NCBI GenBank assembly: GCA_965219085.1
Contig: OZ244720.1
Span: 1,995,429-2,059,428, forward strand
From: Dehalococcoidia bacterium
GTDB taxonomy: Bacteria > Chloroflexota > Dehalococcoidia > UBA2979
DNA: 64,000 nt
Reading direction: 5' to 3'
In this document: one piece after another, positions 14,557 through 61,507 of the stretch
How the letters are laid out: the number at the start of each line of letters is the position of its first letter
How positions within the stretch are numbered: the first letter of the stretch is position 1
Notes under the pieces: model-generated
Told to the model about the DNA's origin: nothing
What the model saw: the letters and a program-made list of their open reading frames with translations, nothing else
Database searches by the model: none
Translations under genes and position numbers: made by a program

Positions 14557-14936
14557 TGGCGGACCACGCACGCTACCTCGTCGAGGACGGCGACCTCGAG
14601 ATCAACGCCGGACGCCCGACGGTCACGCTGGCGGTCGCGAACTCCGGCGACCGCCCGATCCAGGTGGGATCGCACGCGCACTTCTTCGAGGTGAACCGCG
14701 CACTCCGCCTCGACCGCGCCGCCGCATTCGGGATGCGACTCGACATTCCCGCCGGCACGGCGGTTCGGTTCGAGCCGGGTCAGCAGCAGACCGTCACGCT
14801 CGTCGCCTTCGGCGGCGCACGACGGGCGCACGGCATGAACGCGCTTGTCGAAGGCTCCACCGACAGCGCCGACGTGCGCGCCGCCGCGCTCGCCCGCCTC
14901 GAGGAGCGCGGATTCAGCTCGGAGGCCCCGCGATGA
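14555..14936 (+). CDS. ureB: urease beta subunit
   Basis: ATG overlaps the ureA stop (TGATG); [54 protein letters not shown].. Confidence 0.85.
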
Positions 14937-16650
14937 GCCGCATCTCCCGCGAGCGCTACGCCGCGCTCTACGGCCCCACGACCGGCGACCGCTTCCGCCC
15001 CGCCGACACGCAGCTGATCTGGCGCGTCGAGCATGACCACGCCGTACTCGGCGAGGAGGCCGTGTTCGGCGGGGGCAAGACGATCCGCGATGGCATGGCG
15101 CAGGCGCCACGCATGACCGCCGCGGGCGGCAGTCCCGACCTCGTGATCACGAGTGCGCTGATCCTCGATCCCGTGCTCGGCGTGATCAAGGGCGACATCG
15201 TCGTCAAGGATGGGCGGATCGCGGCCATCGGCAAGGCCGGAAAACCCCGACATCATGGACGGCGTCGACCCCGCGCTCGTGATCGGGCCGGGTACCGAGG
15301 TCATCGCCGGCGAGCACATGATCGCGACGCCCGGCGGCGTCGACAGCCACATCCACATGATCGCGCCGCAGCAGGCGTGGGCCGCCCTCTCGAACGGCAT
15401 CACGACGATGCTCGGCGGCGCCGCCGGCCCCGCCGACGGCACGCGCGCCACCACCACCACGCCCGGCCCGTGGAACATCGCGCGCATGCTCGAGGCCGCC
15501 GAGACCATGCCCGTGAACTGGGGCCTCTTCGCGAAGGCGAACGCCTCGGACGTGGCGGCGATCGCCGAGCAGGTCGCGGCCTGCGCGCTCAAGGTCCACG
15601 AGGACTGGGGCTCGTCCCCCGCCGTGATCGACGCCGCGCTCCGCGCCGCGGATGAGTACGACGTGCAGCTGGCGATCCACACCGACACCCTCAACGAGAG
15701 GGGCTTCGTCGAGGACACCATCGCCGCGATCGCGGGCCGCACGATCCACACGTTCCACACCGAGGGCGCGGGCGGCGGTCACGCTCCGGACATCCTCCGC
15801 CTCGCCGGCGAGCCGAACGTGCTCCCTTTGAGCACCAACCCGACTCGCCCCTACACGGTGAACACGCTGGCCGAGCACATGGACATGCTCATGGTCTGCC
15901 ATCACCTCAACCCGCAGGTCCCCGAGGACGTCGCCTTCGCCGACAGCCGCATCCGCCCCGAGACGATGGCCGCCGAGGATGTCGTCCACGACGTGGGCGT
16001 ACTGAGCATGTACTCGTCGGACTCGCAGGCGATGGGCCGCGCCGGCGAGAACTTCACGCGCCTGATCCAGACCGCCGACAAGATGAAGCAGGTGCGCGGC
16101 CCGCTGCCCGAGGACGCCGCGGGCGACGACAACGCCCGCGTCCTCCGCTACATCGCCAAGCTCACCATCAACCCCGCCCGCACCCACGGCATCGCGCACG
16201 AGGTTGGCAGCCTCGAGACCGGCAAGCTCGCCGACATCGTGCTGTGGCCGACGCAGTTCTTCGGTGCGAAGCCCGCGCTCGTCGTCAAGGGCGGCATGAT
16301 CGCGTGGTTCGTGATGGGCGAGCCGAACGCCTCGATCCCGACGGTCGAGCCGGTCATCTACCGCCCGATGTTCGGCGCACACCCCTCCGTGATCCCGGCG
16401 ACCAGCGTCACCTTCCTCAGCTAGGCCACGCTGGATCGCGGCGTGGCCGGGGCGCTCGGCCTGCGGTGTCGCATCGCCGTCAGCAGGAACAATCGTGCGC
16501 TCACCAAGGCCGACATGCTCCGCAATGACGCCCTCCGGGCGATCGATGTCGATCCCGAGACCTACGAGGTGCGCGACGATGGCGAGGTCGTCACCTCGCC
16601 CCCCGCAGAGACCCTCGCGCTGTCCCAGCGCTACTTCCCTGGTCTAGCGA
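14933..16650 (+). pseudogene. ureC: urease alpha subunit (ureC), disrupted: +1 indel near 15236, in-frame TAG at about 16425, and an indel at the ureC/ureF junction
   Basis: N-terminus [21 protein letters not shown]..; GGAAAACCCC gives ..AGKPRHH.. instead of ..AGNPDIMDG..; conserved ..TFLSQAA.. reads TFLS*AT (TAG); C-terminus ..SQRYF then runs into ureF because of CCCT in place of CCT. Confidence 0.8.
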
Positions 16651-17353
16651 TGCCCGCCTCGACCCGCTCGCTGATCGCGCTGCTCCAACTCGCGGATTCC
16701 TCGTTCCCGATGGGCGCGTTCGCCCACTCCTACGGGCTGGAGCAGCTCGTCCGCGACGGCATGGTGCGGGACGCCGCATCGCTCGAGGCCTTCGTCGACT
16801 CGATCGTCTCGCTCCAGCTCGCGCCCGCCGAGGCCCGCGCCGCCGCCTCGGCGTGCCACGCCGCCGCGCTGGGCGGCCTCGAGACTGGTGCTCGCGATCG
16901 ACCACTGCCTCCACGTCACGCGCGCCCCTCGTGAGCTGCGCGACGCGGCGGTCGCCGCCGGCCGCCGGCTGCTCGAGGAGGTCGCCGCGCACGCCGCCGG
17001 CCGCCGCGGCCTTGTGCCCGCGTTCCGCGACGCCGTGCTCGAAGACCGCGCGCCCGGCGCCCACGCCGTCGCGCTCGGCGTGGCGGGCGCGGCCTTCGGC
17101 GTGCCGCCCGAGGACGTTGCCGCCGCCCCGCTCTTCAGCACGGCGAACGCGCTCGTGCAGGCGGCGATGCGCCTGCTCCCGATCTCGCACCGCGACGCGC
17201 AGTCCGTGCTGCACCGCGTTCGCGACGCGATCGCCGACGCCGCGCGCGCGGCCGCCGCGGACGGAACCGCTCGCGTTCACATCGTTCCACCCACTCCGGG
17301 AGATCGCGTCGATGCGCCACGCGAGCGCACCGGTCCGCTTCTTCGCGTCGTAA
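16648..17353 (+). pseudogene. ureF: urease accessory protein UreF with two frameshifts
   Basis: MPASTRSLIALLQLADSSFPMGAFAHSYGLE.. (frame 0), then ..LVLAIDHCLHVTRAPRELRD..FSTANALVQAAMRLLP.. (frame +1), then ..EPLAFTSFHPLREIASMRHASAPVRFFAS* (frame +2, TAA at 17351). Confidence 0.7.
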
Positions 17354-17371
17354 CGCAAGCAATCGGGGCAC

Positions 17372-17397
17372 GCAGCCGAGGCATGCAGCCGAGGCAT
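17372..17397 (+). repeat. perfect 13-bp tandem duplication (GCAGCCGAGGCAT x2) in the ureF-ureG junction
   Basis: Read directly from the sequence, immediately 5' of the ureG ATG. Confidence 0.85.
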
Positions 17398-17409
17398 CGA
17401 GGTCAGACC

Positions 17410-18039
17410 ATGAGCCAGCCCATCACCATCGGCGTCGGCGGCCCCGTCGGCTCCGGCACGTCGCTGCTCGTCGAGCGCATCGTCCCGCCGATGATCGAAC
17501 GTGGCTTCTCGCCGGGCGTCGTGGCCAACGACGTCGTCACCGAGGAGGACGCACTGATCATCCGCCGCGGCCTCGATGGCATCCTCGACCCGGCGCGCAT
17601 CGTCGGCGTCGCGACCGGCGCCTGTCCGCATCAGGCGGTGCGCGAGGACCCATCGCTCAATCTCGCCGCGATCGAGCGTCTCGCGGAGGAGCACCCGGAC
17701 ATCGACCTCGTGTTCATCGAGAGCGGCGGCGACAACCTCACGCTGACCTTCAGCGCGCTGCTGGCGCGGCTCTCGATCTACGTGATGGATGTCGCCGGCG
17801 GCGACAAGACCCCTCGCAAGCGGGGGGCGGGCATGATCCAGTCGGACCTGCTGGTCATCAACAAGACCGATCTCGCGCCATACGTCGGGGTCGACGTCAT
17901 GGAGCGCGACGCCGCGACGTACCGCAGCGGCCCGCTGCTGTTCACCGACTGCCGCCACGGCAGCGGTCTCGTCGAGGTCGCCGACTGGCTTGCCACTTCG
18001 ATCAGCGCGCTCGCCGCTCCGGCTGCCGCCCCGGCGTGA
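17410..18039 (+). CDS. ureG: urease accessory GTPase
   Basis: MSQPITIGVGGPVGSGTSLL (P-loop), ..ESGGDNL.., ..INKTDL..; 209 aa, intact. Confidence 0.9.
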   Translation: MSQPITIGVGGPVGSGTSLLVERIVPPMIERGFSPGVVANDVVTEEDALIIRRGLDGILDPARIVGVATGACPHQAVREDPSLNLAAIERLAEEHPDIDLVFIESGGDNLTLTFSALLARLSIYVMDVAGGDKTPRKRGAGMIQSDLLVINKTDLAPYVGVDVMERDAATYRSGPLLFTDCRHGSGLVEVADWLATSISALAAPAAAPA

Positions 18040-18049
18040 CGCGCGCCTG

Positions 18050-18843
18050 ATGCCCGTCCGCAGCCGGCTGGTCGCGCGCTTCGCTCCGTCGCCGGGTGGA
18101 GCGCCCCGCGCGGTGCGCGCCGACGTTGCGGCGACCACCCCGCTCGAGCTGCGCGGCCCCTTCCCCGCCTCGATCCCCGGTACGCCCCGCGCTACCTCTT
18201 GCTCAACGTCACCGCCGGCATCCTCGACGGCGACGACTACGCGATCGAGGTCTGCGCGGCGCCGGGCACGCGAGTCGGCGTGGAGCCCACATTCGCCGCG
18301 AAGGTGTTCCGCTCACGCGGCGGCGGCGCGGCCTTGCGCACGCGCATCGAGGTCATGCCGGGCGCGGAGCTCCGCTACGACTCGGGCCTGCTGATCCCGC
18401 ATGCGGGAGCGGTCCTCCGTCAGCAAACCGAGATCGTGCTGCACGAATCGGCGCGGGCAAGCTGGAGCGAGTCGCTGTCGTTCGGCCGCCTCTCGCACGA
18501 CGAGCGGTTCCAGTTCAAGCGGATCGAGAACGAGCTGCGAGTCGTCGATCCCGCGGGGCGTGTGCGCTACGAGCGCCGCTCCGACCTCGTCCCGCAACGC
18601 GACCGTGCCGCCCTCGAATCAGCCGTCGGCTGCTTCGGCGCGGTCGGCTCGATGGTCCTGCTGGGCAGGCAGCCCGGCGAGGAGCCCGAACTCCCCGATC
18701 TCTCCGCGCTGCCCGGCGTCTACGCCGGTGCGACGACACTTCCCGACGACCTCGGCACGATCGTCCACGTGCTCGCTGAGTGGCCCGAGCAGATCGAGGC
18801 GGTATTCAGCCTCGCGCGAGCGGCGCGGTGCGCGCAGGTATGA
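18050..18843 (+). pseudogene. ureD: urease accessory protein UreD/UreH with a 1-bp frameshift near 18190
   Basis: MPVRSRLVARFAPSPGGAPRAVRADVAATTPLELRGPFPASIPGTPR then frame switch to YLLLNVTAGILDGDDYAIEV..RIENELRVVDPAGRVRYERR.. Confidence 0.7.
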
Positions 18844-19194
18844 GCGTCGCTGCCCCTCGAGGACCGGGTAGTGACTCCATCAGGAGACGGCGCTGCGGCC
18901 GCGGGCCGAGACTCACAACTCGGACACTGGTATCCGGCCCTCTGGAACCCTTCTGGACCCGGCCGCCATCCAACACCGCCCTGCATGGGGTAGATGTCCC
19001 GCGGCAGCAGGTCTCCAGGCAGAGGATGACACCGGCGCGATTATCTCCCCGCCGCGCTTGCTTCCAGTTGCTACTGATCCAGGCGGGCGGATGCTGTTCA
19101 GCGCTGGATGAGTTGCTGAGCCGATCGGCCACGCCCCAGGCGATTTCGCTACCGAGGCTCGCGGTTCCGCCTTGGGCCGTGCGAGGATCGCCGT

Positions 19195-20025
19195 ATGCCA
19201 CTCGTCGGAGGCAAGGAGCTGCTCGATCGCGCCGAGCGCGGCGGCTACGCCGTAGCCGGGTTCAACGTCTCCAACATCGAGCTCGCCCTCGGCGTCATTG
19301 ACGCCGCCGAGGCGCGGCGCGCGCCGATCCTGCTCCAGTTCAACCCCTCCAACATCGAGCACTTTGGGGGGATCGAGGTCGCCGCGGCAACGGCCCGTGC
19401 CCTCGCCCGGCGCGCCGAGGCACCGATCGCGGTCCACCTCGACCACGGCCCCGACATCACGCTGCTGCGCGCGGCGGGCCACGCCGGCTTTACCTCGCTC
19501 ATGTTCGACGGGTCGACCACGCCCATCGACCGCAATATCACCGACACGCGCGCTGCGGGCGCGCTCGCCATCGAGTACGGCGTGGCGCTCGAAGCCGAGC
19601 TCGGCCACGTCGGCGGCCGCGAACCCGGTGTCGTCAGCTCCGAGTCGATCCTGACCGACCCGACCGCGGCCCGCCGCTTCGTCGACGAGACACAGGTCGA
19701 CTCGCTCGCGATCTCGGTCGGCACCGCGCACGGGCTCGCCGGCATCGTCGACGTGGCGCTCGTGCGCGAGCTGCGCGCGGCGACGCGCGGGTTGCCGCTC
19801 GTGCTGCACGGCGGCTCCGGCGTCGCGCCCAACGCGCTGCGCGACTGCGTGCGAGCAGGGGTGCGCAAGCTCAACGTCAGCACCGAGATCCATGCGGCCT
19901 TCGCACAGGCAGTCGCGGGCGCCGGCGGCTCCGACCCACGCCCGGCGCTGCGCGCCGCCCGCAATGCAGTGGCCGCCGCCGCGTCGCTCCGCATCGACGC
20001 GCTCGGCTCGGCGCTGCGCGGCTGA
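19195..20025 (+). CDS. fba: class II fructose/ketose-bisphosphate aldolase
   Basis: ..GYAVAGFNVSNIE.., HLDHG, SVGTAHG, LVLHGGSG motifs; 276 aa. Confidence 0.85.
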   Translation: MPLVGGKELLDRAERGGYAVAGFNVSNIELALGVIDAAEARRAPILLQFNPSNIEHFGGIEVAAATARALARRAEAPIAVHLDHGPDITLLRAAGHAGFTSLMFDGSTTPIDRNITDTRAAGALAIEYGVALEAELGHVGGREPGVVSSESILTDPTAARRFVDETQVDSLAISVGTAHGLAGIVDVALVRELRAATRGLPLVLHGGSGVAPNALRDCVRAGVRKLNVSTEIHAAFAQAVAGAGGSDPRPALRAARNAVAAAASLRIDALGSALRG

Positions 20026-20086
20026 GGCTTGCCCGTCGCCGCTGCCGCGGGTTTCGGCGCCGGGGTGCGCGGCTATACTCGACGGG

Positions 20087-49133: not shown

Positions 49134-49147
49134 GGCGGGAGCGAACC

Positions 49148-49618
49148 ATGGCGAACGCAACCAAAGCCGACGTCGAGGCGGGCGGCAGCTACTTCCCGAC
49201 GGCCGTCGCCCTCCCGGTGGCGATGGTGGATGGCCTCGACGCGCCGCACTACGAGGGCAAGGAGCGCGGCGAGCTGTGGGTGCAGTACTGCACCGCCTGC
49301 GAGGCGCACCAGTGGGGCCCCGAGTGGATTTGCCACCGCTGCCTCGGCTACGACCTTGAGTGGCGGCAGGTGGCGGCCGAGGGCCGGATCTTCTCGTGGG
49401 AGCGGATCTGGCACCCCGTCCACCCCGACCTCGCCGAGGCGGTGCCGTACGTCGTGGTGCTGATCGAGCTCCCGCACGCGGACGACATCCGCATGGTCGG
49501 CAACCTCCTCGGCGACCCCGAGGAGGAGATCGTCATTGGTTCGGAGGTCGAGGCGGTGTTCGAGCACCACCCTGATCACGATCCGGCCTACACTCTCGTG
49601 CAGTGGTCCCGGACGTAG
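49148..49618 (+). CDS. DUF35 protein (rubredoxin-like Zn ribbon plus OB fold), partner of SCP-x thiolases
   Basis: CTACEAHQWGPEWICHRCLG Zn ribbon followed by an OB-fold segment; immediately downstream of the thiolase-like gene. Confidence 0.8.
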   Translation: MANATKADVEAGGSYFPTAVALPVAMVDGLDAPHYEGKERGELWVQYCTACEAHQWGPEWICHRCLGYDLEWRQVAAEGRIFSWERIWHPVHPDLAEAVPYVVVLIELPHADDIRMVGNLLGDPEEEIVIGSEVEAVFEHHPDHDPAYTLVQWSRT

Positions 49619-49707
49619 GGGACGAACGCAGCAAGATGGACGCGCCGGCCGAGGCCTGAGCGCGGCGACCGCCCCCGGCACACCCCGGGGCGGGAAAGGA
49701 TGGGGAC

Positions 49708-50868
49708 ATGGACTTCGAGATGCCGGCGGAGGTGCTCGACTTCCGCAAGCAGGTGCAGGACTTCATCGCCTCGCACCGCACACCCGAACTCGACGCCGAG
49801 ATCGCCGAGAGCCACATCCACGGCTACGGCCCCGCGTCGCAGGGCTTCATGCGCGCGATGGCGCAGGAAGGCCTCGCCGCCGTCGCATGGCCCGAGGAGT
49901 ACGGCGGCCAGGGCAAGGGCGCGCTCTTCCTGTGGACCCTCGCCGAGGAGTGCGCGCGTGAGGACGTGCCGTTCGACAACCTCACCTTCATCTCCGTCGG
50001 CCCGAGCATCATGCGCAACGGCACGGAGGAGCAGAAGCAGGAGATCCTCCCCAAGGTGCTCAGGGGCGAGATCAACTTCGCCCTCGGATACACCGAGCCG
50101 AACGCCGGCACCGACCTCGCCTCGCTACAGACGCGCGCCGTCCGCGACGGCGACGAGTGGGTGATCAACGGGCAGAAGATCTACACCTCGTCTGCCCACC
50201 TCGCGACGCACGTCTGGCTCGCGGCGCGGACCGAGCCGGATGCGCCGAAGCATCGCGGCATCTCGACCTTCGTGCTGCCGCTCAACACCCCCGGCATCAC
50301 CGTTCGCCCGCTGTGGATCATGGGCGAGGGCCGCACCAACGAGACCTTCTGGGAGGACGTGCGTATCCCCGCCGACTCGCTGATCGGCGAGGAGAACCGC
50401 GGCTGGTACATCGTCAGCGGCGCTCTCGACCTCGAGCGTGTGGCCATCGGCACCTACCGCCCGCTCGAGAAGACGGTCGAGGACATGGTGGCGCACATCA
50501 AGGAGGCGCGGCCCGAGCTCCAGGACGACGCCTTCGCCCGCCAGGCGGTGGCCGACGCGCTCATGCGCGTCGAGGTCGCCCGCGCGCTCGCGACGAACAA
50601 CGCCGCGATGGTGCACAGCGACCTGATCCCGACGATGGAAGCCTCGATGGGCAAGGTCTGGACGACGGACTCCCGCGAGCGCGTGAACGACGCCTTCATG
50701 GACATCCTCGGCCGCACCGGCGGGATGCAGGCCGGCGTCGAGGACGCCCCGCTCGACGGCGCGCTCGATGCGGCGTGGCGCGGTTCCCCGGTGGGACGTT
50801 TCGGCGGAGGCACCAACGACATCCAGCGGCGCATCATCGCGACCCGCGGCCTCGGGCTGCCTCGCTAG
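49708..50868 (+). CDS. acyl-CoA dehydrogenase (first of an adjacent pair)
   Basis: 386 aa; ..YGGQGKGALF.., ..NGQKIYTSSAH.., C-terminus ..IQRRIIATRGLGLPR. Confidence 0.85.
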   Translation: MDFEMPAEVLDFRKQVQDFIASHRTPELDAEIAESHIHGYGPASQGFMRAMAQEGLAAVAWPEEYGGQGKGALFLWTLAEECAREDVPFDNLTFISVGPSIMRNGTEEQKQEILPKVLRGEINFALGYTEPNAGTDLASLQTRAVRDGDEWVINGQKIYTSSAHLATHVWLAARTEPDAPKHRGISTFVLPLNTPGITVRPLWIMGEGRTNETFWEDVRIPADSLIGEENRGWYIVSGALDLERVAIGTYRPLEKTVEDMVAHIKEARPELQDDAFARQAVADALMRVEVARALATNNAAMVHSDLIPTMEASMGKVWTTDSRERVNDAFMDILGRTGGMQAGVEDAPLDGALDAAWRGSPVGRFGGGTNDIQRRIIATRGLGLPR

Positions 50869-50877
50869 GAGGACGAC

Positions 50878-51951
50878 ATGGATATCCGTCTCAGCGAGCT
50901 GCAGGAGTTGCTCCGCACCAACGCGCAGGAGTTCTTCGAGCGCGAGGTCACCTTCGAGCGCATCCGCGAGATCGAGGCAGCCGACACGCCCGACATGCAA
51001 CTGTGGGACCAGATGGTCGAGCTCGGCTGGACCTCGCTGCCCATCGCCGAGGAGTACGGCGGTCAGGGCGGCACCCTGCTCGACACCTCGATCCTCGTCA
51101 ACGAGGCCTGCCGCGCCGCCTTGCCGAGCCCCTTCACCTCGACGCTGATCGCGGCCGTTGCCGTGCAGCGCCACGGCTCCGAGGACCTCAAGCAAGCTCT
51201 GCTGCCGCGCCTCGCCGACGGCCTCGCGATCTCCTCGGCGGTGCTCGAGGCCGACGACGCCATCTACGGCGAACCGCAGACGACGTCCGACGGCTCGACC
51301 GTCAGCGGCGAGAAGCGCTTCGTCGAGTTCGGCGCGACGAGCGACGTGCACCTGGTCACGGCGACGCGTAACGGCTCGCAGGGCATCGCGGTGGTGTCGC
51401 GCGACCAGGCCGGCGTGGAGCTGTCGCCCGTCCAGACGATCGGCGCGATTCCCCAGGCCCACGTCCGCTACGACGGCGCCGCCGTCGACGGCTGGATCGA
51501 GGGCGCGGAGGCCGTCGATGGCCTGCGCGACCTCGGCACGGCGCTCACGGCGTTCGAGGCCTACGCGTACGCGCAGAAGGCGCTCGACCTCACCATCGAC
51601 TACGTGCAGCTGCGCGTCCAGTTCGGCCAGCCGCTCGGCGCGTTCCAGGCGGTGCAGATGCACTGCGCCGACATGGCGACGCTCGTCGAAGGCTCGCGCT
51701 TCCTCGCGCAGGAGCTGCTATGGAACCTCGACCAGGGCGAGGTGACGCGCCGCGACGTGGCGATCGTGAAGGCGATCACCTCGAAGATGGCGCCGCAGGT
51801 GCTGCAGGACTGCCACATGCTGCACGGCGGCATCGGCTACATGCAGGAGTACGACCTGCACTTCTTCACGCGGCGCGGCAAGGAAGCCTCGCTGCGCTGG
51901 GGCTCCGCCCGCGAGGCGATGAACGTCGTCGTGGACGCCGCCTTCGCGTAG
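50878..51951 (+). CDS. acyl-CoA dehydrogenase-fold protein (second of the pair, shorter, possible beta subunit)
   Basis: 357 aa; ACAD fold (..EEYGGQGGTLLD.., ..MLHGGIGYMQEYDLHFFTRR..); 9-bp spacing from the upstream ACAD gene. Confidence 0.75.
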   Translation: MDIRLSELQELLRTNAQEFFEREVTFERIREIEAADTPDMQLWDQMVELGWTSLPIAEEYGGQGGTLLDTSILVNEACRAALPSPFTSTLIAAVAVQRHGSEDLKQALLPRLADGLAISSAVLEADDAIYGEPQTTSDGSTVSGEKRFVEFGATSDVHLVTATRNGSQGIAVVSRDQAGVELSPVQTIGAIPQAHVRYDGAAVDGWIEGAEAVDGLRDLGTALTAFEAYAYAQKALDLTIDYVQLRVQFGQPLGAFQAVQMHCADMATLVEGSRFLAQELLWNLDQGEVTRRDVAIVKAITSKMAPQVLQDCHMLHGGIGYMQEYDLHFFTRRGKEASLRWGSAREAMNVVVDAAFA

Positions 51952-51972
51952 CGACTGGCAGCACGGACGGCG

Positions 51973-52584
51973 GTGGGCAGCGTCGAGCTATTGCGGGAGC
52001 GTGGTGCTGCCGTGTCTGTTGATCGGATGACCAACTGGCAGATCGCTGCCCTCGCCCTCTACTCGCTGGGTGGAGCAACCTCGCGGCAACACCAAGAGGA
52101 TGTCGCCGTGAAGTGCTATGAGTTTGCCCCTCGGAGATTTCGGTGGGAGAAGTACGAGTACCCGAACCTCGATATCGTCGGCAAGGCGCTGCGTGACGCG
52201 AAGCACGTCAAGAATGGCAGCCTTGTCAGTGGCGATAAGCGCCTTGGCTGGCTCCTGAGTCCTGCTGGTGTCGACTGGGCATCCCGGAATGGGCCAGCTG
52301 GTCGGGACATGGACGACGGCGGCTCGTCTGTACTGCCTGCGGCCGAGGGCAGAGAGTTGCGGCTACTGAAGTCACACCAACTGTTCGGGGGGTGGGAGGC
52401 CGGGAGCGAAGCGGTGTCCGTCTTCCTGGTAGCCGACGCAGTCGGCCTCACGGCAGACGCGCCGATTCAATCGATCGCGCGGCGCATCACGGAGCTGCAA
52501 AGCGCCGCCCGAGCCGGGCGGCAACGCGATGTGGAAGGATTCTTGAGATGGCTCATGGACAGCCTGAACGCGTCAAGCTCGTAA
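51973..52584 (+). CDS. hypothetical protein, first gene of the low-GC island
   Basis: 203 aa, no recognisable motif; local GC is about 58% against about 72% in flanking genes; 3' end overlaps the next ORF. Confidence 0.5.
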   Translation: MGSVELLRERGAAVSVDRMTNWQIAALALYSLGGATSRQHQEDVAVKCYEFAPRRFRWEKYEYPNLDIVGKALRDAKHVKNGSLVSGDKRLGWLLSPAGVDWASRNGPAGRDMDDGGSSVLPAAEGRELRLLKSHQLFGGWEAGSEAVSVFLVADAVGLTADAPIQSIARRITELQSAARAGRQRDVEGFLRWLMDSLNASSS

Positions 52585-53686
52585 CGACTCAACGCGCCCA
52601 TCAGCAGGATGCCGCAAACGCGATGGGCTCGGATCCTATCAAGGCGATTATTGAGTTGGTGACCAATGCTGACGATGCCTACGACGGCGTTACAACGAAC
52701 CGCAAGGGGAAGATTCGGATCGAATGGGAGCGACACCGCAAGACCCCGACGGTCCTCCGTGTCCTCGACCGCGCCCGCGGGATGACAAGGGATGAGATGC
52801 TTGAGCGACTCGGCAGGCTCGGCGAACGCACAAGCGGATTTGAGCATGGCGCACAACGCCGGGGCTTCTTCGGCCGGGGCGGGAAGGACGTGGCGCACTT
52901 CGGGCCAGTGCGGTGGGAATCGAAGCGGAGCGGCGAGCACACCGGATTCGAGATCGAGTACAAATCCGGGGCCTCGGTTGACGCCCTCGTATACGAGCTC
53001 CCGGCAGTCGAGTCCCGCGACACGGGCACAACAGTCACTCTTGAGATTCAGCCTCGCTTCCAAAGTCCGCTGGAGTCGACCCTCATGGACAGACTCAAGC
53101 GGCACTATGCCCTGCGGCCGATACTTGACGACCGTCGCAACCGCGAGATTACCCTGAACGATCAGAAGGTCGTGTTCGAGCCACCTCGGGGCAGATTGCT
53201 CCTCGATCGCGAGAAGCACTCGATCCGGGGCTACGATGGTTTCGAGTGCGTCATCACGATTACGGAGTGCGCTGAGTCTCTCGACGATGACCAGTCCCCA
53301 GATTACTGGCGGCACTCGCTCCTGATCACGTCGGGGCGTGCAGCGTATGAGGTCTTTCAGGGCGGCAAGTTCTCACGCGGCCCGCATGCTCAATACCTGG
53401 GAAGGCTCTTCGGCACTGTTGACGTACCCGGCATCAACGAACTCATCCGCGAGCATGATGACCGTGTCGAGGCCGGGCTCGACCCGACCGAAACGCGATG
53501 CTGGCCGAAATCCTTGCCTCGACAGTAGTGCGGAGTAGGCTGCAGGAGAAGTATCAGGAGCGCCACGACGTAGCACGGCTATTCTTCGAGTACCAGAACG
53601 ACCTCGCGAAACTGTTGCCGCGCGTGCATGCCGCGCTCGTTCCCGCAGCCGAGCGCCGCAGCGTTGAGCCATGGCGACAAGGCTGA
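52546..53686 (+). CDS. GHKL-superfamily (Bergerat-fold, HATPase_c-like) ATPase; C-terminus reached through a +1 frame change near 53480
   Basis: N-box IIELVTNADDAY, G1 box VLDRARGMTRDE, G2 box GFFGRGGKDVAHFG; the frame ends ..DPTETRCWPKSLPRQ* at 53528 but the +1 frame continues protein-like (..MLAEILASTVVRSRLQEKYQERHDVARLFFEYQNDLAKLLPRV..) to 53686. Confidence 0.6.
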
Positions 53687-53711
53687 GTGCTGAGGCGCCC
53701 ACAGCCCCTGG

Positions 53712-54911
53712 TCAGGCGACGACGCCCCTCGCCTTGAGCGCCGCGATCGACTCGGCGGACTCGCCGAGCTCGGCGAGCACCTCGTCGGTGTGCCGGCCGA
53801 GGTGCGCAGGGGCGCTGCGCACGTTGCCCGGTGTGCCCAGCAGCTTCGGCGCGACGCCGACGTGGCGCACGGTCCCCGCGCCCACGCCCTCGCCCTCCAC
53901 CTCGATCGCCATCTCGCGCTCCCGCTGGTGGGGGTCGTCGAGCATCTCGTCGAGGTCGAGCACGGGCGTCAGGCATGCGTCGAGGTGGCCGAAGTCGGCG
54001 AACCACTCGTCGCGCGGGCGTTCGCGGAAGCGTGCTGCGAAGGCGGCCTGCATCCCGGCCTGGCGGTCGGGATCGTTCTGGTGCGGGACGAACTCCTCGA
54101 AGCCGAGCGCCTTGCACAGCTCCTCGAAGAAGTAGGGCTCGATCGCGCCGACGCTGATCCAGCGGCCGTCGGCGCACTCGTAGACCTGGTAGTAGCAGCG
54201 CGCGCCGGCGAGCGTGTGGTCGCCGCGGCGCGGCGGCCCGGCCCCGGCGAGCATCGTCGCGACGTGCGAGATCATGAGCGAGGCGACGCCGTCCGACATC
54301 GCGGCGTCGACGTCCTGGCCGTGGCCGGTGCGCTCGCGCGCCTGTAGCGCGAGCACGATGCCGAACGCGGCCATCAGCCCGCCGCCGGCGAAGTCGGCGA
54401 TGATGTTGAGCGGGATCACCGGGTCGCCCTGCACGTTCCCGATCGACCCGAGCGCGCCGCCGATCGAGATGTAGTTGATGTCGTGCCCGGCGCGCGGCTC
54501 ATATGGTCCGGTGCGCCCGAAGCCCGACACCGAGCACGTGATGATGCGCGGGTTGATAGCCTCGAGGCTCGCGTAGTCGATGCCGAGGCGGTTCGTGACG
54601 CCCGGCCGGAAGCCGTCGATGACCACGTCGGAGCGCTCGACCAGGGCCCGGAAGATGCGCTGGCCGTCCTCGTCGCGGAGGTTGATGGCTGTGCCGCGCT
54701 TGTTGCGCCGGATCGCGTCGTGGGCGAGCGCGCGCGCCGCCTCCTCGGTCTCGGGCGCGCCGGCGCGCACGTTGAAGCGGGCGACGGCGCCCGGCGGCAC
54801 CTCGACCATGAACACGTCGGCGCCGAAGTCGGCGAGAAGCATGGAGGCGTACTGGCCGGGCGGGGTGCGGGACAGGTCGAGGACGCGAACGCCCTCCAGC
54901 GCCATGGTCAT
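53712..54911 (-). CDS. mcr: alpha-methylacyl-CoA racemase (family-III CoA-transferase fold)
   Basis: ..GHDINYISIGGALGSIG.., ..PLNIIADFAGGGLMAAFGIVLAL.., ..YYQVYECADGRWISVGAIEPYFFEEL.., ..FADFGHLDACLTPVLDLDEM.. match Mcr-type racemases. Confidence 0.8.
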   Translation of the reverse strand: MTMALEGVRVLDLSRTPPGQYASMLLADFGADVFMVEVPPGAVARFNVRAGAPETEEAARALAHDAIRRNKRGTAINLRDEDGQRIFRALVERSDVVIDGFRPGVTNRLGIDYASLEAINPRIITCSVSGFGRTGPYEPRAGHDINYISIGGALGSIGNVQGDPVIPLNIIADFAGGGLMAAFGIVLALQARERTGHGQDVDAAMSDGVASLMISHVATMLAGAGPPRRGDHTLAGARCYYQVYECADGRWISVGAIEPYFFEELCKALGFEEFVPHQNDPDRQAGMQAAFAARFRERPRDEWFADFGHLDACLTPVLDLDEMLDDPHQREREMAIEVEGEGVGAGTVRHVGVAPKLLGTPGNVRSAPAHLGRHTDEVLAELGESAESIAALKARGVVA

Positions 54912-55109
54912 GGGGTGCCTCCTCGGTGCGCTACGGGTCGTTGCAGGCCCGTGTCGCGAGGAGGGTAGCTCGTGGCGCTGTGCGGGACGAGGGGCGCGAG
55001 GCGCCTGGAGGCTCGGGCTTATTTGCGTTGGATGGCCGAAACGAAAATCACAGCACTCGCTATTTTCGTCGGCGCTAACACACGGCGCCGAGGCTGGCCC
55101 CGGAGGAGG

Positions 55110-55400
55110 TTACAGTCGTTCCCGAAGAGTCGCGGCTTCCAGCCGCCGTGACTGCTCGGCACGCCCGTCGACAACGGCCACGCCTTCCTGTCGAAGCAGC
55201 TCGACCGGATCACGAGAGTCGACCGGGTCGCTCCAGTGGAAGCCTTCGGCGACCGAGCCGCCCGCCGTCAGTACACGGTGGGCAGCGGAGCATTGGTTGC
55301 AGGCGGTGATGTGTCCGCCCACGGCACGAGCCGAACTGCCAATCGCATCCGCGAGGTCCCCGTAGGTCGTCCACTCACCCGACTGTACTTGATCCAGCAG
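55110..55400 (-). pseudogene. alkyltransferase-like (ATL) protein, MGMT/Ogt DNA-binding domain lacking the reactive Cys; no usable start codon in frame
   Basis: ..GEWTTYGDLADAIGSSARAVGGHITACNQCSAAHRVLTAGGSVAEGFHWSD..; AHRV replaces PCHRV; the in-frame stretch begins right after a TGA without ATG/GTG/TTG, and an upstream ATG exists only in another frame. Confidence 0.55.
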
Positions 55401-55590
55401 ACGGTGAAGGCCGGATCAATCCCGAGGTTCAGCGCTGCGTCCGCGCACTTCGCCCGCCAAGGCAGACAAAGTTTGGCCGTCCGCCCATCCATGCTCTCGG
55501 TCCCTGAATGACCCTCGGGCGCTCACCAGTCGCTCGCTCCACGATCTCCTTCGCCAGTCCGGTGGGGCTCCAATGTTCCCCGTCGACCAT

Positions 55591-56469
55591 CTAGGTAAGT
55601 GGCGTTGAAGGATGGTTTCGCCAGGTCACATGAGAGCGCTGGGGATCGGCCTTGAGCCATTCCGCAACCCGCTCACGCCATAGAGGCCGAATGCCGCGGG
55701 GCGCAAGCTCGACCAACGCCCCGTCTTCAATGAGCCCGGCGTCGACTAGCCTTGCGACGGCGCGTGTTTCACGGCGCGTGTGTGATCGCTCGTCCGTTGC
55801 TCGTTGCTCCATTTCGCGAGGCGAGACGGTGAAGTCCTCGACCTCCTGCAATGGCCAGACCTGCGAGACCGAGAGCACGACGTCGTGCTCGGTGCGGTAA
55901 GCGTTGAACTCGATCAACGAGACCTCAACGCCCATCTCGGTCAGCCAGACGGCGCTCGCGGTGACTTGCGGCGGGAAGCTCGCCGCCACCAGAGCGATGC
56001 GTGGCCGCCGGAGCAAGTCCGGGTCGAGCTCACCGCCGGCGTGCTCCTCGAGTTGGACAAGGGCGTTCTCGGCTGACACCAACTCCGTACCCTCCCGCGA
56101 CAGGTAGTCGGCGTGCCGTTCGCTGAGTGTCTCCGGCGTGAAGCGGCTCGCGAAGGCCGCGTACTTGACTGCCTGCATCCCGACAGTGTCGGGCGCCGGC
56201 CCGCGTTTCAACTCGGCCACGAGGAGCCGCCCCTCGCCGTCGAGGCCGAGCAGATCGAGGCGGTCTGCCGCGCGTCCGTCGCGCGCCTGCCATGCGGCGA
56301 ACTCGAACGTCACGATGCGGATGTCGTCGCCGAGGATCTCCGGGTTGTTGCGTACCCACTCTTGCAGGTCGGACCGCTCGCGCAGTCCCGCTTCGGCAAG
56401 GCTGATCGGTTGCGCGGGCTGCGCCGCGCCGGGCTGGACGGTGAAGATCAGCTCACTGGGCATGCGCAC
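55591..56469 (-). CDS. NucS/DUF91-like PD-(D/E)xK nuclease-family protein
   Basis: ..ERSDLQEWVRNNPEILGDDIRIV..DRLDLLGLDGEGRLLVAELKRGPAPDTVGMQAVKYAAF.. matches the DUF91 nuclease core (E..L..nP.L....iDll..d..g..vViElKr). Confidence 0.7.
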   Translation of the reverse strand: MRMPSELIFTVQPGAAQPAQPISLAEAGLRERSDLQEWVRNNPEILGDDIRIVTFEFAAWQARDGRAADRLDLLGLDGEGRLLVAELKRGPAPDTVGMQAVKYAAFASRFTPETLSERHADYLSREGTELVSAENALVQLEEHAGGELDPDLLRRPRIALVAASFPPQVTASAVWLTEMGVEVSLIEFNAYRTEHDVVLSVSQVWPLQEVEDFTVSPREMEQRATDERSHTRRETRAVARLVDAGLIEDGALVELAPRGIRPLWRERVAEWLKADPQRSHVTWRNHPSTPLT

Positions 56470-56654
56470 CTCCCGCGCTGATGCAGGCTACGCAACGAGC
56501 GTGATGATGTCACGGTGCGGGGTGGGTGAAGATGTAGCGCAGGTTCTCGCGCTTGGATGGCGAAGTTCGCGCGCGTCTGCTCCCTGGTGAGCCGGCCCCC
56601 GTAATCGGATTGGCGCGAGCTGCGACGCCGATATGTGTAGCCACTCACAGGACG

Positions 56655-56739
56655 GCACAGCAAGACGCCCGCCTGAGGGCGGGTGTCCCTGTGCGTTGCG
56701 GCTGGAGCGTTGGCTGCTAGCGCGAGCCTCGCAGGCGCG
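56655..56739 (+). repeat. direct repeat copy 1 (85 bp): duplicate of the dppC 3' end (last 7 codons plus stop) and its terminator hairpin
   Basis: About 93% identical to 58325..58408; contains the GC palindrome GACGCCCGCC-TGAG-GGCGGGTGTC and a decoy ..RLRGSR* coding end. Confidence 0.85.
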
Positions 56740-56930
56740 TTGTGGGTGGTGACTCGTTCGCAAATAGCGATGGGCGCTGGTTGCGCTATCGCTAACAACG
56801 GCCACGGCAGGCATGCTCAGGTAGTGTTTGATGGGGTATTCGAAGATAACGGCGCTGACTCTTCTCGCTACCGCTAACAACAGACGCCTCCCTCGATCGT
56901 TATTTGTGATAAGGACCATGTGCGATAATA

Positions 56931-58142
56931 ATGGACTCGGAGTGCGTGTACGTTCACGAGGAAGAGCCTGTGACATCGCTGACCGAGCAGACCCGCGAGC
57001 CGCATGGCCGCATGGTGAACGGCCCCGGCGGCTATCGCGCCTACGTGCCCGCCCCGGCTCCGCCGCCCCTGACGTGGGATGTCGACCTCGTCCTGAGCCT
57101 CTCGGCCGCCGATCTGGCTGTTGGCAGACTCGCCGGCGAGGGACGACGTCTCCCGAATCCGCACATCCTGATCCGGCCATTCGTCCGCAAGGAGGCCGTC
57201 CTGTCCAGCCGTATCGAGGGGACCCAGGCCACGCTCGGCGAGTTGCTCGCCGCCGAGGCGGGCGCGTTCGTTGAGCGCAGCCGGGACGACTTGCGCGAGG
57301 TGGGGAACTATGTGGTCGCCCTCGAATACGGCGTCGCTCGTCTCGAGTCGTTGCCCGTATCGCTGCGTCTGGTGCGCGAGCTGCACGAGCGCCTCATGCG
57401 CGGCGTGCGGGGCGAGGTCGCCACCCCCGGCGAGTTTCGGCGCAGCCAGAACTGGATCGGGCCGCCGGGTAGCACGTTGAACAATGCGACCTACGTCCCG
57501 CCGCCGCCTCTGGAGTTGATGGCGTGCCTGGATGCATGGGAGCGGTTCATGCACGACGAGACGTTGCCGCCGCTGGCGCACGCCGCCATCGCACACGCCC
57601 AGTTCGAGGCAATCCACCCGTTCCTCGACGGTAACGGGCGCGTCGGGCGGCTGCTCATCACGCTGTTACTCGTCGCGCGAGGGGTGATTCCCTCTCCGCT
57701 GCTCTACCTCAGCGCGTGGTTCGAGGCCACGCGCGACGAGTACTACAGGCACCTCCTGGGCGTGACGCAGCGGGGTGAATGGGAGGAGTGGCTGACCTAC
57801 TTCCTGCGAGGCGTCGTGCGCCTGTCCGAGGATGCGCTCGGCCGGATCCAGCGTCTCGACGACCTCCTCGCCGGATGGAAGGGCGCGTTGGCGGGCGGCA
57901 GGTCGCGACAACCGGAGCAGGCGCTCGACCTCTTTGCCGAGAACCCCTTCTGGACGGTCGGGGGCGCGGCCGAACGGCTGGGGGTGGCGTTCACGACTGC
58001 CCAGCGAGCCATCGACCGACTGGTGGCAGCCGAAATGGTCGCCCAGGTGGGGGACGCTCAGCGCAACCGCGTGTATTGCGCGGGCGCCATCCTCCAACTG
58101 TTGGAGGAAGAACCGCGCTTCGCCGACGGCACGGTCTCGTGA
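56931..58142 (+). CDS. Fic-family protein (Fic_N plus FIC domain plus C-terminal winged HTH)
   Basis: Active-site motif HPFLDGNGRVGRLL; Fic_N block ..LPNPHILIRPFVRKEAVLSSRIEGTQATLGELL..; AT-rich promoter-like TTGTGA..N17..GATAAT about 30 bp upstream. Confidence 0.85.
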   Translation: MDSECVYVHEEEPVTSLTEQTREPHGRMVNGPGGYRAYVPAPAPPPLTWDVDLVLSLSAADLAVGRLAGEGRRLPNPHILIRPFVRKEAVLSSRIEGTQATLGELLAAEAGAFVERSRDDLREVGNYVVALEYGVARLESLPVSLRLVRELHERLMRGVRGEVATPGEFRRSQNWIGPPGSTLNNATYVPPPPLELMACLDAWERFMHDETLPPLAHAAIAHAQFEAIHPFLDGNGRVGRLLITLLLVARGVIPSPLLYLSAWFEATRDEYYRHLLGVTQRGEWEEWLTYFLRGVVRLSEDALGRIQRLDDLLAGWKGALAGGRSRQPEQALDLFAENPFWTVGGAAERLGVAFTTAQRAIDRLVAAEMVAQVGDAQRNRVYCAGAILQLLEEEPRFADGTVS

Positions 58143-58324
58143 GGTAATCGGCACGCCTCGCGCCGGTGCAGGCTAGGCAACGCCGGGGGCGATGTCACGG
58201 CGGAGGCAGCGCTACGTGAGCGCGTCGACCCCGCTGGGACCGTCCGTCACCCCAACTCCTCGGCTATCCGTTCGCCGGCGTCGAAGTCCTCGAAGGTCTT
58301 CAGCCCGGTGACACTTACCGGAGG

Positions 58325-58408
58325 GCACAGCAAGACGCCCGCCTGAGGGCGGGCGTCTTGTGCGTTGCGGCTGAAAGCGTGGCTGCTAGCGCGAGCCTCG
58401 CAGGCGCG
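58325..58408 (+). repeat. direct repeat copy 2 (84 bp), overlapping the authentic 3' end of the dppC paralog and its terminator
   Basis: Perfect 12-bp stem AAGACGCCCGCC-TGAG-GGCGGGCGTCTT; see copy 1. Confidence 0.85.
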
Positions 58409-59325: not shown

Positions 59326-60276
59326 CTACGAGTACCGGATCCGCGGGTCGATGATCGCGTACGACAGGTCGATCAGCAGGTTCGACGTGATGAACAGGAT
59401 GGCGGTGAAGAACACCACACCCTGCACCACCGGGTAGTCGCGCACCTGGATCGCCTCGAAGCCCAGCGTCCCCACGCCCGGCAGCGAGAACACGACCTCG
59501 ACGATGACGAGACCACCGAGGAGGAAGGTGAGCTGGCTGCCCATGATCGTGATCACGGGGATCAGCGCATTCCGCAGCGCGTGCTTGAGGATGATGACGC
59601 GCTCCATCAGCCCCTTCGCGCGGGCGGTGCGCACGTAGTCCTGTCGCAGCACCTCGAGCATCGCCGAGCGCGTCATGCGGGCGTTAATCGCGCTGGAGCG
59701 GTAGCCGACGATGAGCGCGGGGAAGATGAAGGCCTGCATGTTGGCCCACGGGTTCTCCCACGGCGGTGTGTAGCCGAAGTCTGGTAACCACCCGACCCAC
59801 ACGGACAGGATGTACAGGAGCATCGTCGCCAGGAAGAAGTCCGGGACGGATAACCCCGTGATGGAGAACATCCGTGCGGCGTAATCCATCCAGCTATCCT
59901 GTCTGATCGCGGATACGATGCCTAATGGGATGGCCGTCACCACCGCAACGAACATCGCCATCATCGCGAGTTGGATCGAGACGCGCGATCGCGTCACGAG
60001 CGTCTCCAGGACATCGCGGCCAGTCCACAGCGATACACCCATGTCGCCCCGGAGCACGCCGCTGACCCACTCGACGTATTGGACCGGGAAGCTCTTGTCG
60101 AGCCCCAGCTCCCTTCGCATCGCGTCGACGTCCTCCTGGGTGAGGTAGCCCGACTCGGAGAGCCGCGCCATGACGACGTCGCCGGGCTGCAGTCGTAGCA
60201 AGCCGGCGATGAGAATGGTCACGATGAGGAGCGAGGGCATCGCGACCACGAGCCTTCGTACGATGTAACGACCCAT
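59326..60276 (-). CDS. peptide ABC transporter permease, DppB/OppB type (copy 1)
   Basis: 316 aa, MGRYIVRRLVVAMPSLLIVT.. to ..LLIDLSYAIIDPRIRYS. Confidence 0.85.
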   Translation of the reverse strand: MGRYIVRRLVVAMPSLLIVTILIAGLLRLQPGDVVMARLSESGYLTQEDVDAMRRELGLDKSFPVQYVEWVSGVLRGDMGVSLWTGRDVLETLVTRSRVSIQLAMMAMFVAVVTAIPLGIVSAIRQDSWMDYAARMFSITGLSVPDFFLATMLLYILSVWVGWLPDFGYTPPWENPWANMQAFIFPALIVGYRSSAINARMTRSAMLEVLRQDYVRTARAKGLMERVIILKHALRNALIPVITIMGSQLTFLLGGLVIVEVVFSLPGVGTLGFEAIQVRDYPVVQGVVFFTAILFITSNLLIDLSYAIIDPRIRYS

Positions 60277-60556: not shown

Positions 60557-61507
60557 CTACGAGTAGCGGATCCGCGGGTCGATCACCGCGTACGAGAGGT
60601 CGACCAGCAGGTTCGCACCGACGAACAGCAGCGCCGTGAACAGCACCACGCCCTGCACCATCGGGTAGTCGCGCACCTGGATCGCCTCGAACCCCAGCGT
60701 CCCCACGCCCGGCAGCGAGAACACCACCTCGATGATGACGAGGCCGCCGAGGAGGAAGCTGAGCTGGCTGCCCATGATCGTGATCACGGGGATGAGCGCG
60801 TTCCGCAGCGCGTGCTTGACGATGATCGCGCGCTCCATCAGTCCCTTGGACCGCGCGGTGCGCACGTAGTCCTGGCGCAGCACCTCGAGCATGGCCGAGC
60901 GCGTCATGCGCGCACTGATGGCGCTGAAGCGGTAGCCGACGATCAGCGACGGGAAAATGAACGCCTGCACGTTGGCCCACGGGTCTTCCCACGGCGGGAT
61001 GTATCCGAAGGCCGGCAGCCAGCCGACCCACACCGACAGCACGTAGAGCAGCATGGTGGCGAGGAAGAAGTCCGGGACGGACAGCCCCGTGATGGAGAAC
61101 ATCCTCGCCGCGTAGTCCATCCAGGTGTTCTGTTTCACTGCCGAGAGGATCCCGAGCGGGACCGCTGCCATCACCGCGACCGTCATTGCCATCACGGCGA
61201 GCTGCACCGAGACGCGTGAGCGCGTCGCGATGGTTTCCAGGACCTCCCGGCCGCTCCACAGCGATTCCCCGAGGTCGCCGCGCAGCACGCCGGCCATCCA
61301 CGAGGCGTACTGCTCCGGGAAGCTTCGGTCGAGCCCGAGTTCCTCGCGCATCTTCGCGATGTCCTCGGGAGTGGGGTAGCCGGCTTCTGCCAGTCGCGCC
61401 ATGACGACGTCGCCGGGCTGCAGCCGGATGAGGCCGGCGATGAGGATGGTGACGATGATCAGCGACGGTATCGCGATCAGCAGCCTGCGAATGATGTATC
61501 GACCCAT
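60557..61507 (-). CDS. peptide ABC transporter permease, DppB/OppB type (copy 2, tandem paralog about 85% identical to copy 1)
   Basis: MGRYIIRRLLIAIPSLIIVT.. to ..LLVDLSYAVIDPRIRYS; the ORF-track version 60557..61735 carries a 76-aa upstream run-on. Confidence 0.85.
   Translation of the reverse strand: MGRYIIRRLLIAIPSLIIVTILIAGLIRLQPGDVVMARLAEAGYPTPEDIAKMREELGLDRSFPEQYASWMAGVLRGDLGESLWSGREVLETIATRSRVSVQLAVMAMTVAVMAAVPLGILSAVKQNTWMDYAARMFSITGLSVPDFFLATMLLYVLSVWVGWLPAFGYIPPWEDPWANVQAFIFPSLIVGYRFSAISARMTRSAMLEVLRQDYVRTARSKGLMERAIIVKHALRNALIPVITIMGSQLSFLLGGLVIIEVVFSLPGVGTLGFEAIQVRDYPMVQGVVLFTALLFVGANLLVDLSYAVIDPRIRYS

Follow-up and report, generated by a model that had tools for sequence, protein, structure and literature searches.

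The window analysed here, a 64,000-nucleotide (nt) stretch of a Dehalococcoidia bacterium contig (OZ244720.1), contains at positions 51973-53686 an island with two overlapping genes. These encode a small protein, which we call ORF1 (for open reading frame 1), and an ATPase bearing the motifs of the GHKL superfamily. The island starts 21 nt past the stop codon of an acyl-CoA dehydrogenase gene (51951) and ends 25 nt short of the stop codon of a convergent CoA-transferase gene (53712). The features of the locus are listed below with GC content at third codon positions (GC3) where relevant; related loci and proteins carry the handles L and P, respectively.

50878..51951, + strand: acyl-CoA dehydrogenase gene (ACAD2), left flank, recognised by Pfam; GC3 0.96; 94% amino-acid identity to its counterpart in L025.
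51973-53686: island of 1.7 kb, atypical composition, two overlapping genes.
52027..52584, + strand: ORF1, 185 amino acids (aa), from the list of open reading frames (ORFs), start ATG 52027; appears intact.
52548..52584, + strand: 37-nt overlap of the ORF1 and ATPase genes, in window coordinates.
52548..53492, + strand: retained ATPase codons 1-315, with the Bergerat ATP-binding domain at ~52548-53075 and a MORC-like middle domain at ~53076-53492.
53492..53493, + strand: deletion junction joining CCGACCGAA to ACGCGATG, from blastn of L038 against the window; 1-nt microhomology.
53493..53528, + strand: out-of-frame read-through TRCWPKSLPRQ, then TAG, which ends the 326-aa product; from translations and comparison with P0304.
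53495..53686, + strand: stranded last 63 ATPase codons and stop (AMLAEILASTVV...VEPWRQG), the C-terminal helical tail, identical to P0304 residues 661-723.
53712..54911, - strand: family III CoA-transferase gene, right flank (Pfam CoA_transf_3, E 7.5e-94); GC3 0.96; 90% amino-acid identity to L025.

The ATPase gene is broken in the window. The raw larger ORF spans 52392-53528 (378 aa), and homology to relatives begins at ATG 52548, giving a 326-aa product that is also present in the NCBI/ENA record. This product shares a 90%-identity cluster with P0304, an intact protein of 723 aa encoded on the metagenome contig L038, where the gene order is the same as in the window (ACAD, ACAD, ORF1, ATPase, CoA-transferase, nuclease, Fic). 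The intact pair occupies L038 2896-5588. By blastn, L038 1-4361 corresponds to window 49134-53492 and L038 5394-10080 to window 53492-58176; L038 positions 4361 and 5394 thus both fall on window 53492, and the window lacks 1,033 bp corresponding to codons 316-660 of the intact gene. Across 50878-56469 there are zero substitutions between the two, and apart from the 1,033-bp gap the sole difference is an indel of 2 nt at 55486. L025 and L001 give an independent estimate of the deletion: intact homologues in L001, L024 and L025 measure 725-726 aa, and the window matches only aa 1-316 of such proteins and, in another frame, aa 655-725, leaving ~340 codons missing. The stranded tail, which matches aa 655-725 of the L001 homologue, lies in a different frame from codons 1-315 and has no promoter or start of its own except a fortuitous ATG at 53498 (62-aa ORF, 53498-53686). 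The lost segment holds an invariant NPxRLVxRDRxGL..HPF motif, two long helices and both immunoglobulin (Ig)-like domains.

The frame break is thus due to a 1,033-bp deletion and not to a point frameshift. An earlier note, made from the letters of the window, had placed a frame change near 53480; the change is real and the protein-like tail behind it is the genuine C-terminus of the family, but the break lies at 53492/53493 and a point or programmed frameshift is ruled out by the ~340 codons missing relative to homologues and by the exact gap against L038. The same note had taken the ATPase for a protein of ~380-440 aa whose frame was a matter for sequencing, which does not hold, as the intact protein has 723-725 aa and codons 316-660 are lost. 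Because the deletion shifts the frame and removes these codons, the window copy is a pseudogene, and because no substitution has accumulated since, the event is either extremely recent or the deletion allele is segregating in the population. On sequence grounds we thus class the window ATPase copy as a pseudogene of very recent origin or as a deletion allele that still segregates. It can make only a 326-aa stump of GHKL and middle domain, the module is dead here, and an active system in this genome is unsupported.

Disruption of this gene is not confined to the window. A single in-frame TAG interrupts an otherwise conserved, full-length ATPase frame in L002 (7938-7940), in L008/L009 (L009 10541-10543) and in L026/L027 (L026 11039-11041), and L013 carries a different, out-of-frame internal deletion at ~10625-10645. 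All five ATPase-inactivating changes leave ORF1 intact; in a further homologue (P0039), ORF1 itself is split by an insertion sequence (IS) element of the rve_3 type. TAG recoding (pyrrolysine, or phage-style TAG read as Gln) was considered for L002, L008/L009 and L026 and rejected: one of the three TAGs replaces an invariant Glu, and TAG would be the most accessible stop codon in GC-rich genes. The ATPase gene is lost repeatedly, as expected of costly accessory genes. Together, the window pseudogene and five other independently disrupted copies indicate rapid module turnover in slow-growing, uncultured Chloroflexota.

We also weighed a non-biological origin of the 1,033-bp gap, in which an error of assembly or consensus, or a variant present in a minority of reads, found its way into the 3.3-Mb contig while the genome itself carries the intact 723-aa gene. 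Apart from the gap, the two versions agree over 5.6 kb, as would two assemblies of one population, and each stems from a long-read metagenome assembly with modest coverage (8x and 10x tags in the contig names). However, assemblers rarely make clean 1-kb internal deletions in unique, non-repetitive sequence, the junction has no flanking repeat and only 1 nt of microhomology, and the truncated 326-aa product stands on the NCBI/ENA record. Moreover, since the same gene is independently disrupted in other genomes, its loss recurs biologically. We thus regard an artefact as quite unlikely.

The island differs from its surroundings in composition. Its GC content is 0.622, against 0.696 in ACAD2 and 0.723 in the CoA-transferase gene, and its two genes have a GC3 of 0.73 and 0.725, against 0.95-0.96 in the flanks. 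Both flank genes are host core genes. A fall in GC from ~72% to ~58% had been reported; the fall is real but measures about 8-10 points and is sharper at GC3. In six further hosts, the pair likewise has a GC3 of 0.54-0.77 vs 0.86-0.98 in the flanks. Over 20 kb, L025 shares synteny with the window, and its flank proteins are 87-97% identical, whereas ORF1 is 60% and the ATPase 71% identical; this gap points to replacement of the cassette or to a far higher rate of change at a site that stayed fixed. In at least three unrelated gene contexts, cassettes of more than 70% identity are found. By its composition the pair is foreign, and we regard it as horizontally acquired. The two-gene accessory module of foreign composition that the earlier note described was thus borne out. 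No direct or inverted repeats bordering the island were found in the window sequence, and a promoter and terminator scan of the island yielded nothing useful.

The retained part of the ATPase carries the N box, G1 and G2 motifs in order (ELVTNADDAY, DRARGMT and RRGFFGRGGKD), as had been read from the sequence. Its sole Pfam match is HATPase_c_3 (29 bits vs a cut-off of 25, E 1.2e-6), and alignment of 16 diverse homologues revealed that E36, N40, D43, D74, G78, G106, G109, R110, G111 and D114 are invariant. The protein is thus, by its defining motifs, a member of the GHKL (Bergerat-fold) superfamily. Matches of its profile to the PDB were limited to the ATP-binding domains of Hsp90, Grp94 and MORC3/4 (E 2e-3 to 2e-2). 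An AlphaFold2 (AF2) model of residues 181-725 of the homologue P0012 places a middle domain (predicted local distance difference test score, pLDDT, ~90) before two long helices, a disordered Gly-rich linker, two Ig-like beta-sandwiches, a beta-hairpin and a helical tail. From N- to C-terminus, the intact ATPase consists of the GHKL domain, the MORC-like middle domain, the NPxRLVxRDRxGL..HPF motif, two helices, two Ig-like domains and the helical tail. The "novel non-ATPase region" noted earlier was only the MORC-like middle domain; the Ig-like domains and linker lay in the deleted part. The 62-aa tail ORF (53498-53686) had no match in Pfam, and PADLOC and NCBIfam returned nothing meaningful for the ATPase or the tail ORF (a PbeB match at E 0.04 to the tail is noise).

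The ATPase does not belong to the better-known GHKL families. One homologue (P0065) is labelled a sensor histidine kinase by NCBI, but no HisKA/DHp or receiver domain was found in the ATPase, ORF1 or the conserved neighbours, and the GHKL domain is N-terminal here rather than C-terminal. Searches of Pfam and NCBIfam with the 725-aa protein found neither the DNA_mis_repair (S5) domain nor the C-terminal domain of MutL, and no MutL was among the PDB matches. Hsp90/HtpG is excluded by NCBIfam scores far below threshold (HSP90 20.5 bits vs 455; HtpG 11.3 vs 371) and by PDB matches confined to the N-domain (E ~2e-3). Topo VI-B is excluded by a score of 15.9 bits vs 274 and by a partner, the 185-aa ORF1, that matches no Pfam model, and an anti-sigma kinase by Pfam, NCBIfam and PDB searches. 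The view that the protein is no histidine kinase, MutL or topoisomerase was therefore confirmed by Pfam, NCBIfam and PDB.

ORF1 has fewer recognisable features. A 203-aa, motif-free ORF from GTG 51973 had been described and does exist as the raw ORF, but homologues and NCBI/ENA gene calls (P0020, 185 aa; the L038 gene) favour the 185-aa form from ATG 52027. Neither Pfam, PADLOC and NCBIfam nor PDB sequences yielded a relative. An exhaustive profile search recovered an ORF1 family that numbers 719 representatives at E<=1e-3 and 369 at E<=1e-10; with few exceptions, these stand alone as proteins of 180-220 aa. In the AF2 model (pLDDT ~50 in the N-terminal half, ~85 in the C-terminal half), the N-terminal half is predicted to be winged-helix-like and the C-terminal half helical. 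The 37-nt overlap suggests that the two genes are probably translationally coupled, and overlap or abutment of ORF1 with the ATPase gene (0-37 nt) is kept in all loci examined.

This association extends well beyond the close relatives of the window. A word-based first search had found 19 and 20 relatives of the two proteins, and a profile built from 16 full-length homologues expanded the ATPase family to at least 594 clusters, a size similar to that of the ORF1 family, mostly of 700-745 aa and, where named, called "hypothetical protein" or "sensor histidine kinase". In 108 of 118 loci from genomes and metagenomes, the gene immediately preceding the ATPase gene on its strand belongs to the ORF1 family, which bears out the co-occurrence proposed for the two genes. 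Among the ten other loci, three have no upstream DNA and four hold phage-context or giant-virus homologues. Even in a clade whose ATPase is only ~30% identical, the partner still belongs to the ORF1 family (hhalign 99.8%). Most hosts in the genome collection are metagenome-assembled genomes (MAGs) of Dehalococcoidia and further Chloroflexota, joined by a few Planktophila, Nitrospira and Xenobia; one ATPase homologue comes from an Acidobacteria MAG. Judging from these neighbourhoods, the pair is a conserved and widespread two-gene module. The literature searched on GHKL, MORC, HATPase_c_3, GmrSD and HEC-06 in connection with defence or phage yielded no description of it.

Some distant relatives occur in viral contexts. 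Two giant-virus MAG contigs of IMG/VR (L033 7857-10550 and L034 4099-6882) encode ATPase relatives of 898-928 aa without ORF1, 27-29% identical over the first ~340 residues; they are the only IMG/VR matches, and none was found for the phage-context homologue P0129. In BFVD, proteins of Hokovirus and Yasminevirus aligned structurally over long stretches, though weakly. In L030 (5168-7384; also L031), a 738-aa homologue without ORF1 sits in a phage-like block with RusA, a primase zinc ribbon, an AAA_25 helicase and many small ORFs. Some family members may thus be carried by phages or prophages.

The genes around the pair vary by clade. In the window clade (the window, L001, L024, L025, L026 and L038), ORF1 is the sole conserved neighbour. 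Elsewhere, a third gene of 580-735 aa follows the ATPase gene in 57 of the 85 loci with enough downstream DNA; its product has a sigma-70 region-4 helix-turn-helix (HTH), detected by Pfam in 14 of 17 members and matching SigA region 4 in the PDB at E 3e-13. A fourth gene, present in 13 loci, encodes a GmrSD-like HEC-06/Orf5 type IV restriction protein (E 8e-91), and a 388-aa gene with weak HEPN similarity lies upstream of ORF1 in 18 loci. Such operons of three or four genes outside the Chloroflexota clade include L065 and L016 (three genes), L086 (four genes, with the GmrSD-like one), L028, L035, L036 and ~50 further metagenome loci. One subfamily, with a four-gene operon, always adjoins Type I restriction-modification (R-M) genes, in three loci of differing arrangement. 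In L002, a gene of the DndB family with low GC3, like the island, lies upstream; we rejected DndB as a third conserved gene because it occurs only in L002 and the upstream 388-aa gene of another clade is unrelated to it. In L024, a serine recombinase and a 1,086-aa homologue of Tiamat TmtA (PADLOC E 4e-89, GC3 0.55) are encoded at 14851-20071, 4 kb downstream of an intact pair. A DUF1016/YhcG nuclease gene follows TmtA there, making up a small defence and mobile island that adjoins the module. PIN-MazE pairs are adjacent in three loci. In PADLOC-DB v2.0.0 (which includes Tiamat, Mza and Dnd/Pbe), no family matched the ATPase or ORF1 of the window, L001, L028, L030 or P0304 at E<=0.01-1; no known defence model matches the pair, in line with the suggestion of an undescribed system.

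To our knowledge, very few of the predicted prokaryotic ATPases that combine GHKL and S5 domains have been tested. It was predicted in 2008 that the chromatin-silencing MORC proteins of eukaryotes have their roots in those found with restriction systems (PMC2292703). The ATPase described here would work most like this paraMORC class and is not a member of any defined paraMORC family. In contrast to paraMORC (Iyer, Abhiman & Aravind 2008, PMC2292703), it matches no MORC S5 model and, in Pfam, only HATPase_c_3. Its partner is a small, putatively winged-helix-like protein, whereas paraMORC1-5 partner with superfamily II (SF-II) helicases, methylases and Vsr/RE nucleases (PMC2292703), and its C-terminus carries Ig-like and not RecB-like, TIR or HxH domains. 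A neighbourhood of the paraMORC type (SF-II helicase, methylase, restriction nuclease) is absent from the window clade, which lacks any linked R-M gene; one sister subfamily lies beside Type I R-M genes and another carries a GmrSD-like gene.

Three other systems invite comparison. VcSduA of Shedu type I-D (PMC12137116) likewise has a GHKL ATPase, a clamp-like middle domain and a defence context, and in both systems the ATPase is proposed to control a downstream activity. However, VcSduA fuses GHKL to a DUF4263 nuclease in one polypeptide, whereas here there are two proteins and no DUF4263 or PD-(D/E)xK domain; with neither a DUF4263 match nor a PADLOC Shedu match for the 723-725-aa proteins, Shedu type I-D was rejected. 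CapK/CapS (PMC13373217) similarly pairs a GHKL protein with a small DNA-binding protein (a role that is putative for ORF1) beside immune genes, often near R-M genes. CapK is HTH-STAS-GHKL and CapS is STAS-wHTH (winged HTH), with capK first (PMC13373217), whereas here there is no STAS domain and the small gene comes first. Domain content (no STAS in either protein) and the reversed gene order thus rule out CapK/CapS. Mza, a candidate defence system of several genes, includes a MutL-like GHKL protein. In the extended operons, the third gene has a weak local match to MzaA (E 1.5e-6 over ~45 residues) that covers only the sigma-70-region-4-like HTH, and the ATPase and ORF1 match no Mza model; the window clade lacks the third gene altogether.

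On balance, we favour the interpretation that the window carries a broken copy of a conserved, horizontally moving module whose intact form is the core of a restriction-like system against foreign DNA. The deletion, the conserved pairing, the order of domains and the foreign composition are observed; the role of the intact module is inferred. The intact module would act as an ATP-driven sensor or clamp. If it behaves like MORC, MutL, GyrB and Hsp90, the ATPase would form a dimer when it binds ATP and enclose its substrate. ORF1 would contribute DNA binding or regulation, and assembly or recognition of the target would fall to the Ig-like domains and the tail. To this core, related clades would add effector or recognition genes (the sigma-70-region-4 HTH protein, the GmrSD-like type IV nuclease, the DndB-like protein and the Type I R-M neighbours). 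Because the minimal two-gene form has no recognisable nuclease, the Chloroflexota module would have to act by clamping or silencing DNA or through an unlinked effector. The suggestion of an undescribed, possibly defensive system is therefore fair for the family, with sister clades near GmrSD-like, Type I R-M, DndB-like and Tiamat genes, but not for the window copy, which is broken.

A bolder and more tentative version, possible rather than probable, is that the pair forms the core of an undescribed anti-foreign-DNA family with hundreds of members, in which the two-gene form of Dehalococcoidia and other Chloroflexota silences invading DNA without a nuclease by means of an ATP-closed clamp. The winged-helix partner and the Ig-like domains would target the clamp, and the invading DNA would be compacted or silenced. 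If so, the nuclease-free form would be a bacterial counterpart of eukaryotic MORC silencing, onto which other clades would bolt a sigma-70-region-4 protein and a GmrSD-like nuclease; an active two-gene form would mean defence or genome control that does not rely on cleavage. The analysis delineates a sizeable ATPase family (at least 594 clusters, with about 700 partner clusters) with an obligatory small partner that lacks relatives in Pfam, NCBIfam, PADLOC and the PDB, an unusual cytoplasmic Ig-like region and modular extensions, and it provides operons to clone.

Several observations weigh against a mobile defence module. Tblastn of 50,697 phage and 72,556 plasmid records found no homologue, and the window holds no recombinase or flanking repeats that would account for mobility. 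The two-gene form, to which all close relatives of the window locus belong, lacks a nuclease or effector domain and lies among metabolic genes, not in a classical defence island. PADLOC gave only scattered matches on 164 neighbour ORFs from 18 genome loci, and the link to Type I R-M comes from a single subfamily whose members are possibly close in phylogeny. The evidence for a winged helix in ORF1 is a model of low confidence (pLDDT ~50) together with a sequence pattern, that for the deletion is two assemblies, and no publication or experiment was found that ties the ATPase/ORF1 family to a phenotype.

Several readings other than defence were also weighed. The pair could be a regulatory switch in which the GHKL protein acts as a kinase or ATPase on ORF1, a repressor of neighbouring genes, by the logic of CapK/CapS or of pairs of anti-sigma kinase and antagonist. 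A GHKL protein with a small, putative wHTH protein does resemble CapK/CapS, controllers of adjacent immune operons (PMC13373217); the pair lies upstream of the sigma-70-region-4 protein and the GmrSD-like nuclease in many loci, and NCBI names P0065 a sensor histidine kinase. We nonetheless consider a switch unlikely: neither protein has a detectable HisKA/DHp, STAS or receiver domain, the small gene precedes the ATPase gene in the reverse of capK-capS, 723 aa with MORC-like and Ig-like domains contrast with the ~150 aa of SpoIIAB-type kinases, and the Chloroflexota clade has no downstream operon to control, with flanks that are convergent or unrelated metabolic genes.

Alternatively, the pair could be a selfish addiction module akin to toxin-antitoxin systems, in which the ATPase is a toxin that ORF1 neutralises or represses. 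It would persist through post-segregational killing, and the cost of the toxin would select for disruptions. The small upstream gene overlapping a larger downstream one, the foreign composition, the five ATPase inactivations that spare ORF1 (itself IS-interrupted only in the further homologue P0039) and the adjacent PIN-MazE pairs in three loci are all compatible with this. However, the ATPase has no toxin-type catalytic domain and, at 723 aa with several domains, would be an atypical toxin. Addiction modules thrive on plasmids and phages, yet the collections searched for these contained no copy of the module, and its frequent operons of three or four genes with restriction-type genes fit defence better, so addiction seems to us very unlikely. 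Least credible is a role in protein remodelling that has nothing to do with nucleic acids or defence, whether as an accessory chaperone of the Hsp90 type assisted by a J-domain-like co-factor or as a different machine; we judge this most improbable.

Beyond the CoA-transferase gene, the window contains the following genes within 4 to 5 kb of the island, all of which had been pointed out as neighbours and are present.

~55110-55400, - strand: ATL/MGMT-like fragment (..YGDLADAIG..AAHRVL..), on the same strand after the nuclease gene.
55591-56469, - strand: NucS/PDC-S11-like nuclease gene (PADLOC E 5e-49), within 4 kb of the island.
56931-58142: SoFic-type Fic gene (PADLOC E 3e-113), within 4 kb of the island.

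The ATL/MGMT-like fragment has no ATG, GTG or TTG start upstream of its conserved part. The ~1.9-kb block with the nuclease gene and this fragment is found in the near-identical L038 and not in the syntenic L025, and it thus looks like a second recent insertion beside the island. A ~270-bp segment downstream of the Fic gene (58151-58408) is duplicated upstream of it (56466-56739), with a 97-nt core that is ~90% identical and contains the GC-rich hairpin GACGCCCGCCTGAGGGCGGGCGTC; the upstream copy is missing from L025. These repeats may delimit a small cassette around the Fic gene. The window and L038 disagree at 11 positions of the Fic gene, and ten of the differences are nonsynonymous and change 9 amino acids, which could reflect diversifying change, recombination or consensus errors in the 8x contig. 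Across 49134-50868, the window and L038 differ by 53 mismatches, and 17 of the 18 within the first acyl-CoA dehydrogenase gene (ACAD1) are synonymous. Overall, the sequence comparison of the window with L038 presents a strain mosaic. Finally, comparison with L025 revealed, downstream of this region, two tandem OppB-like permease paralogues (59326-60276 and 60560-61507) with 82% protein identity.

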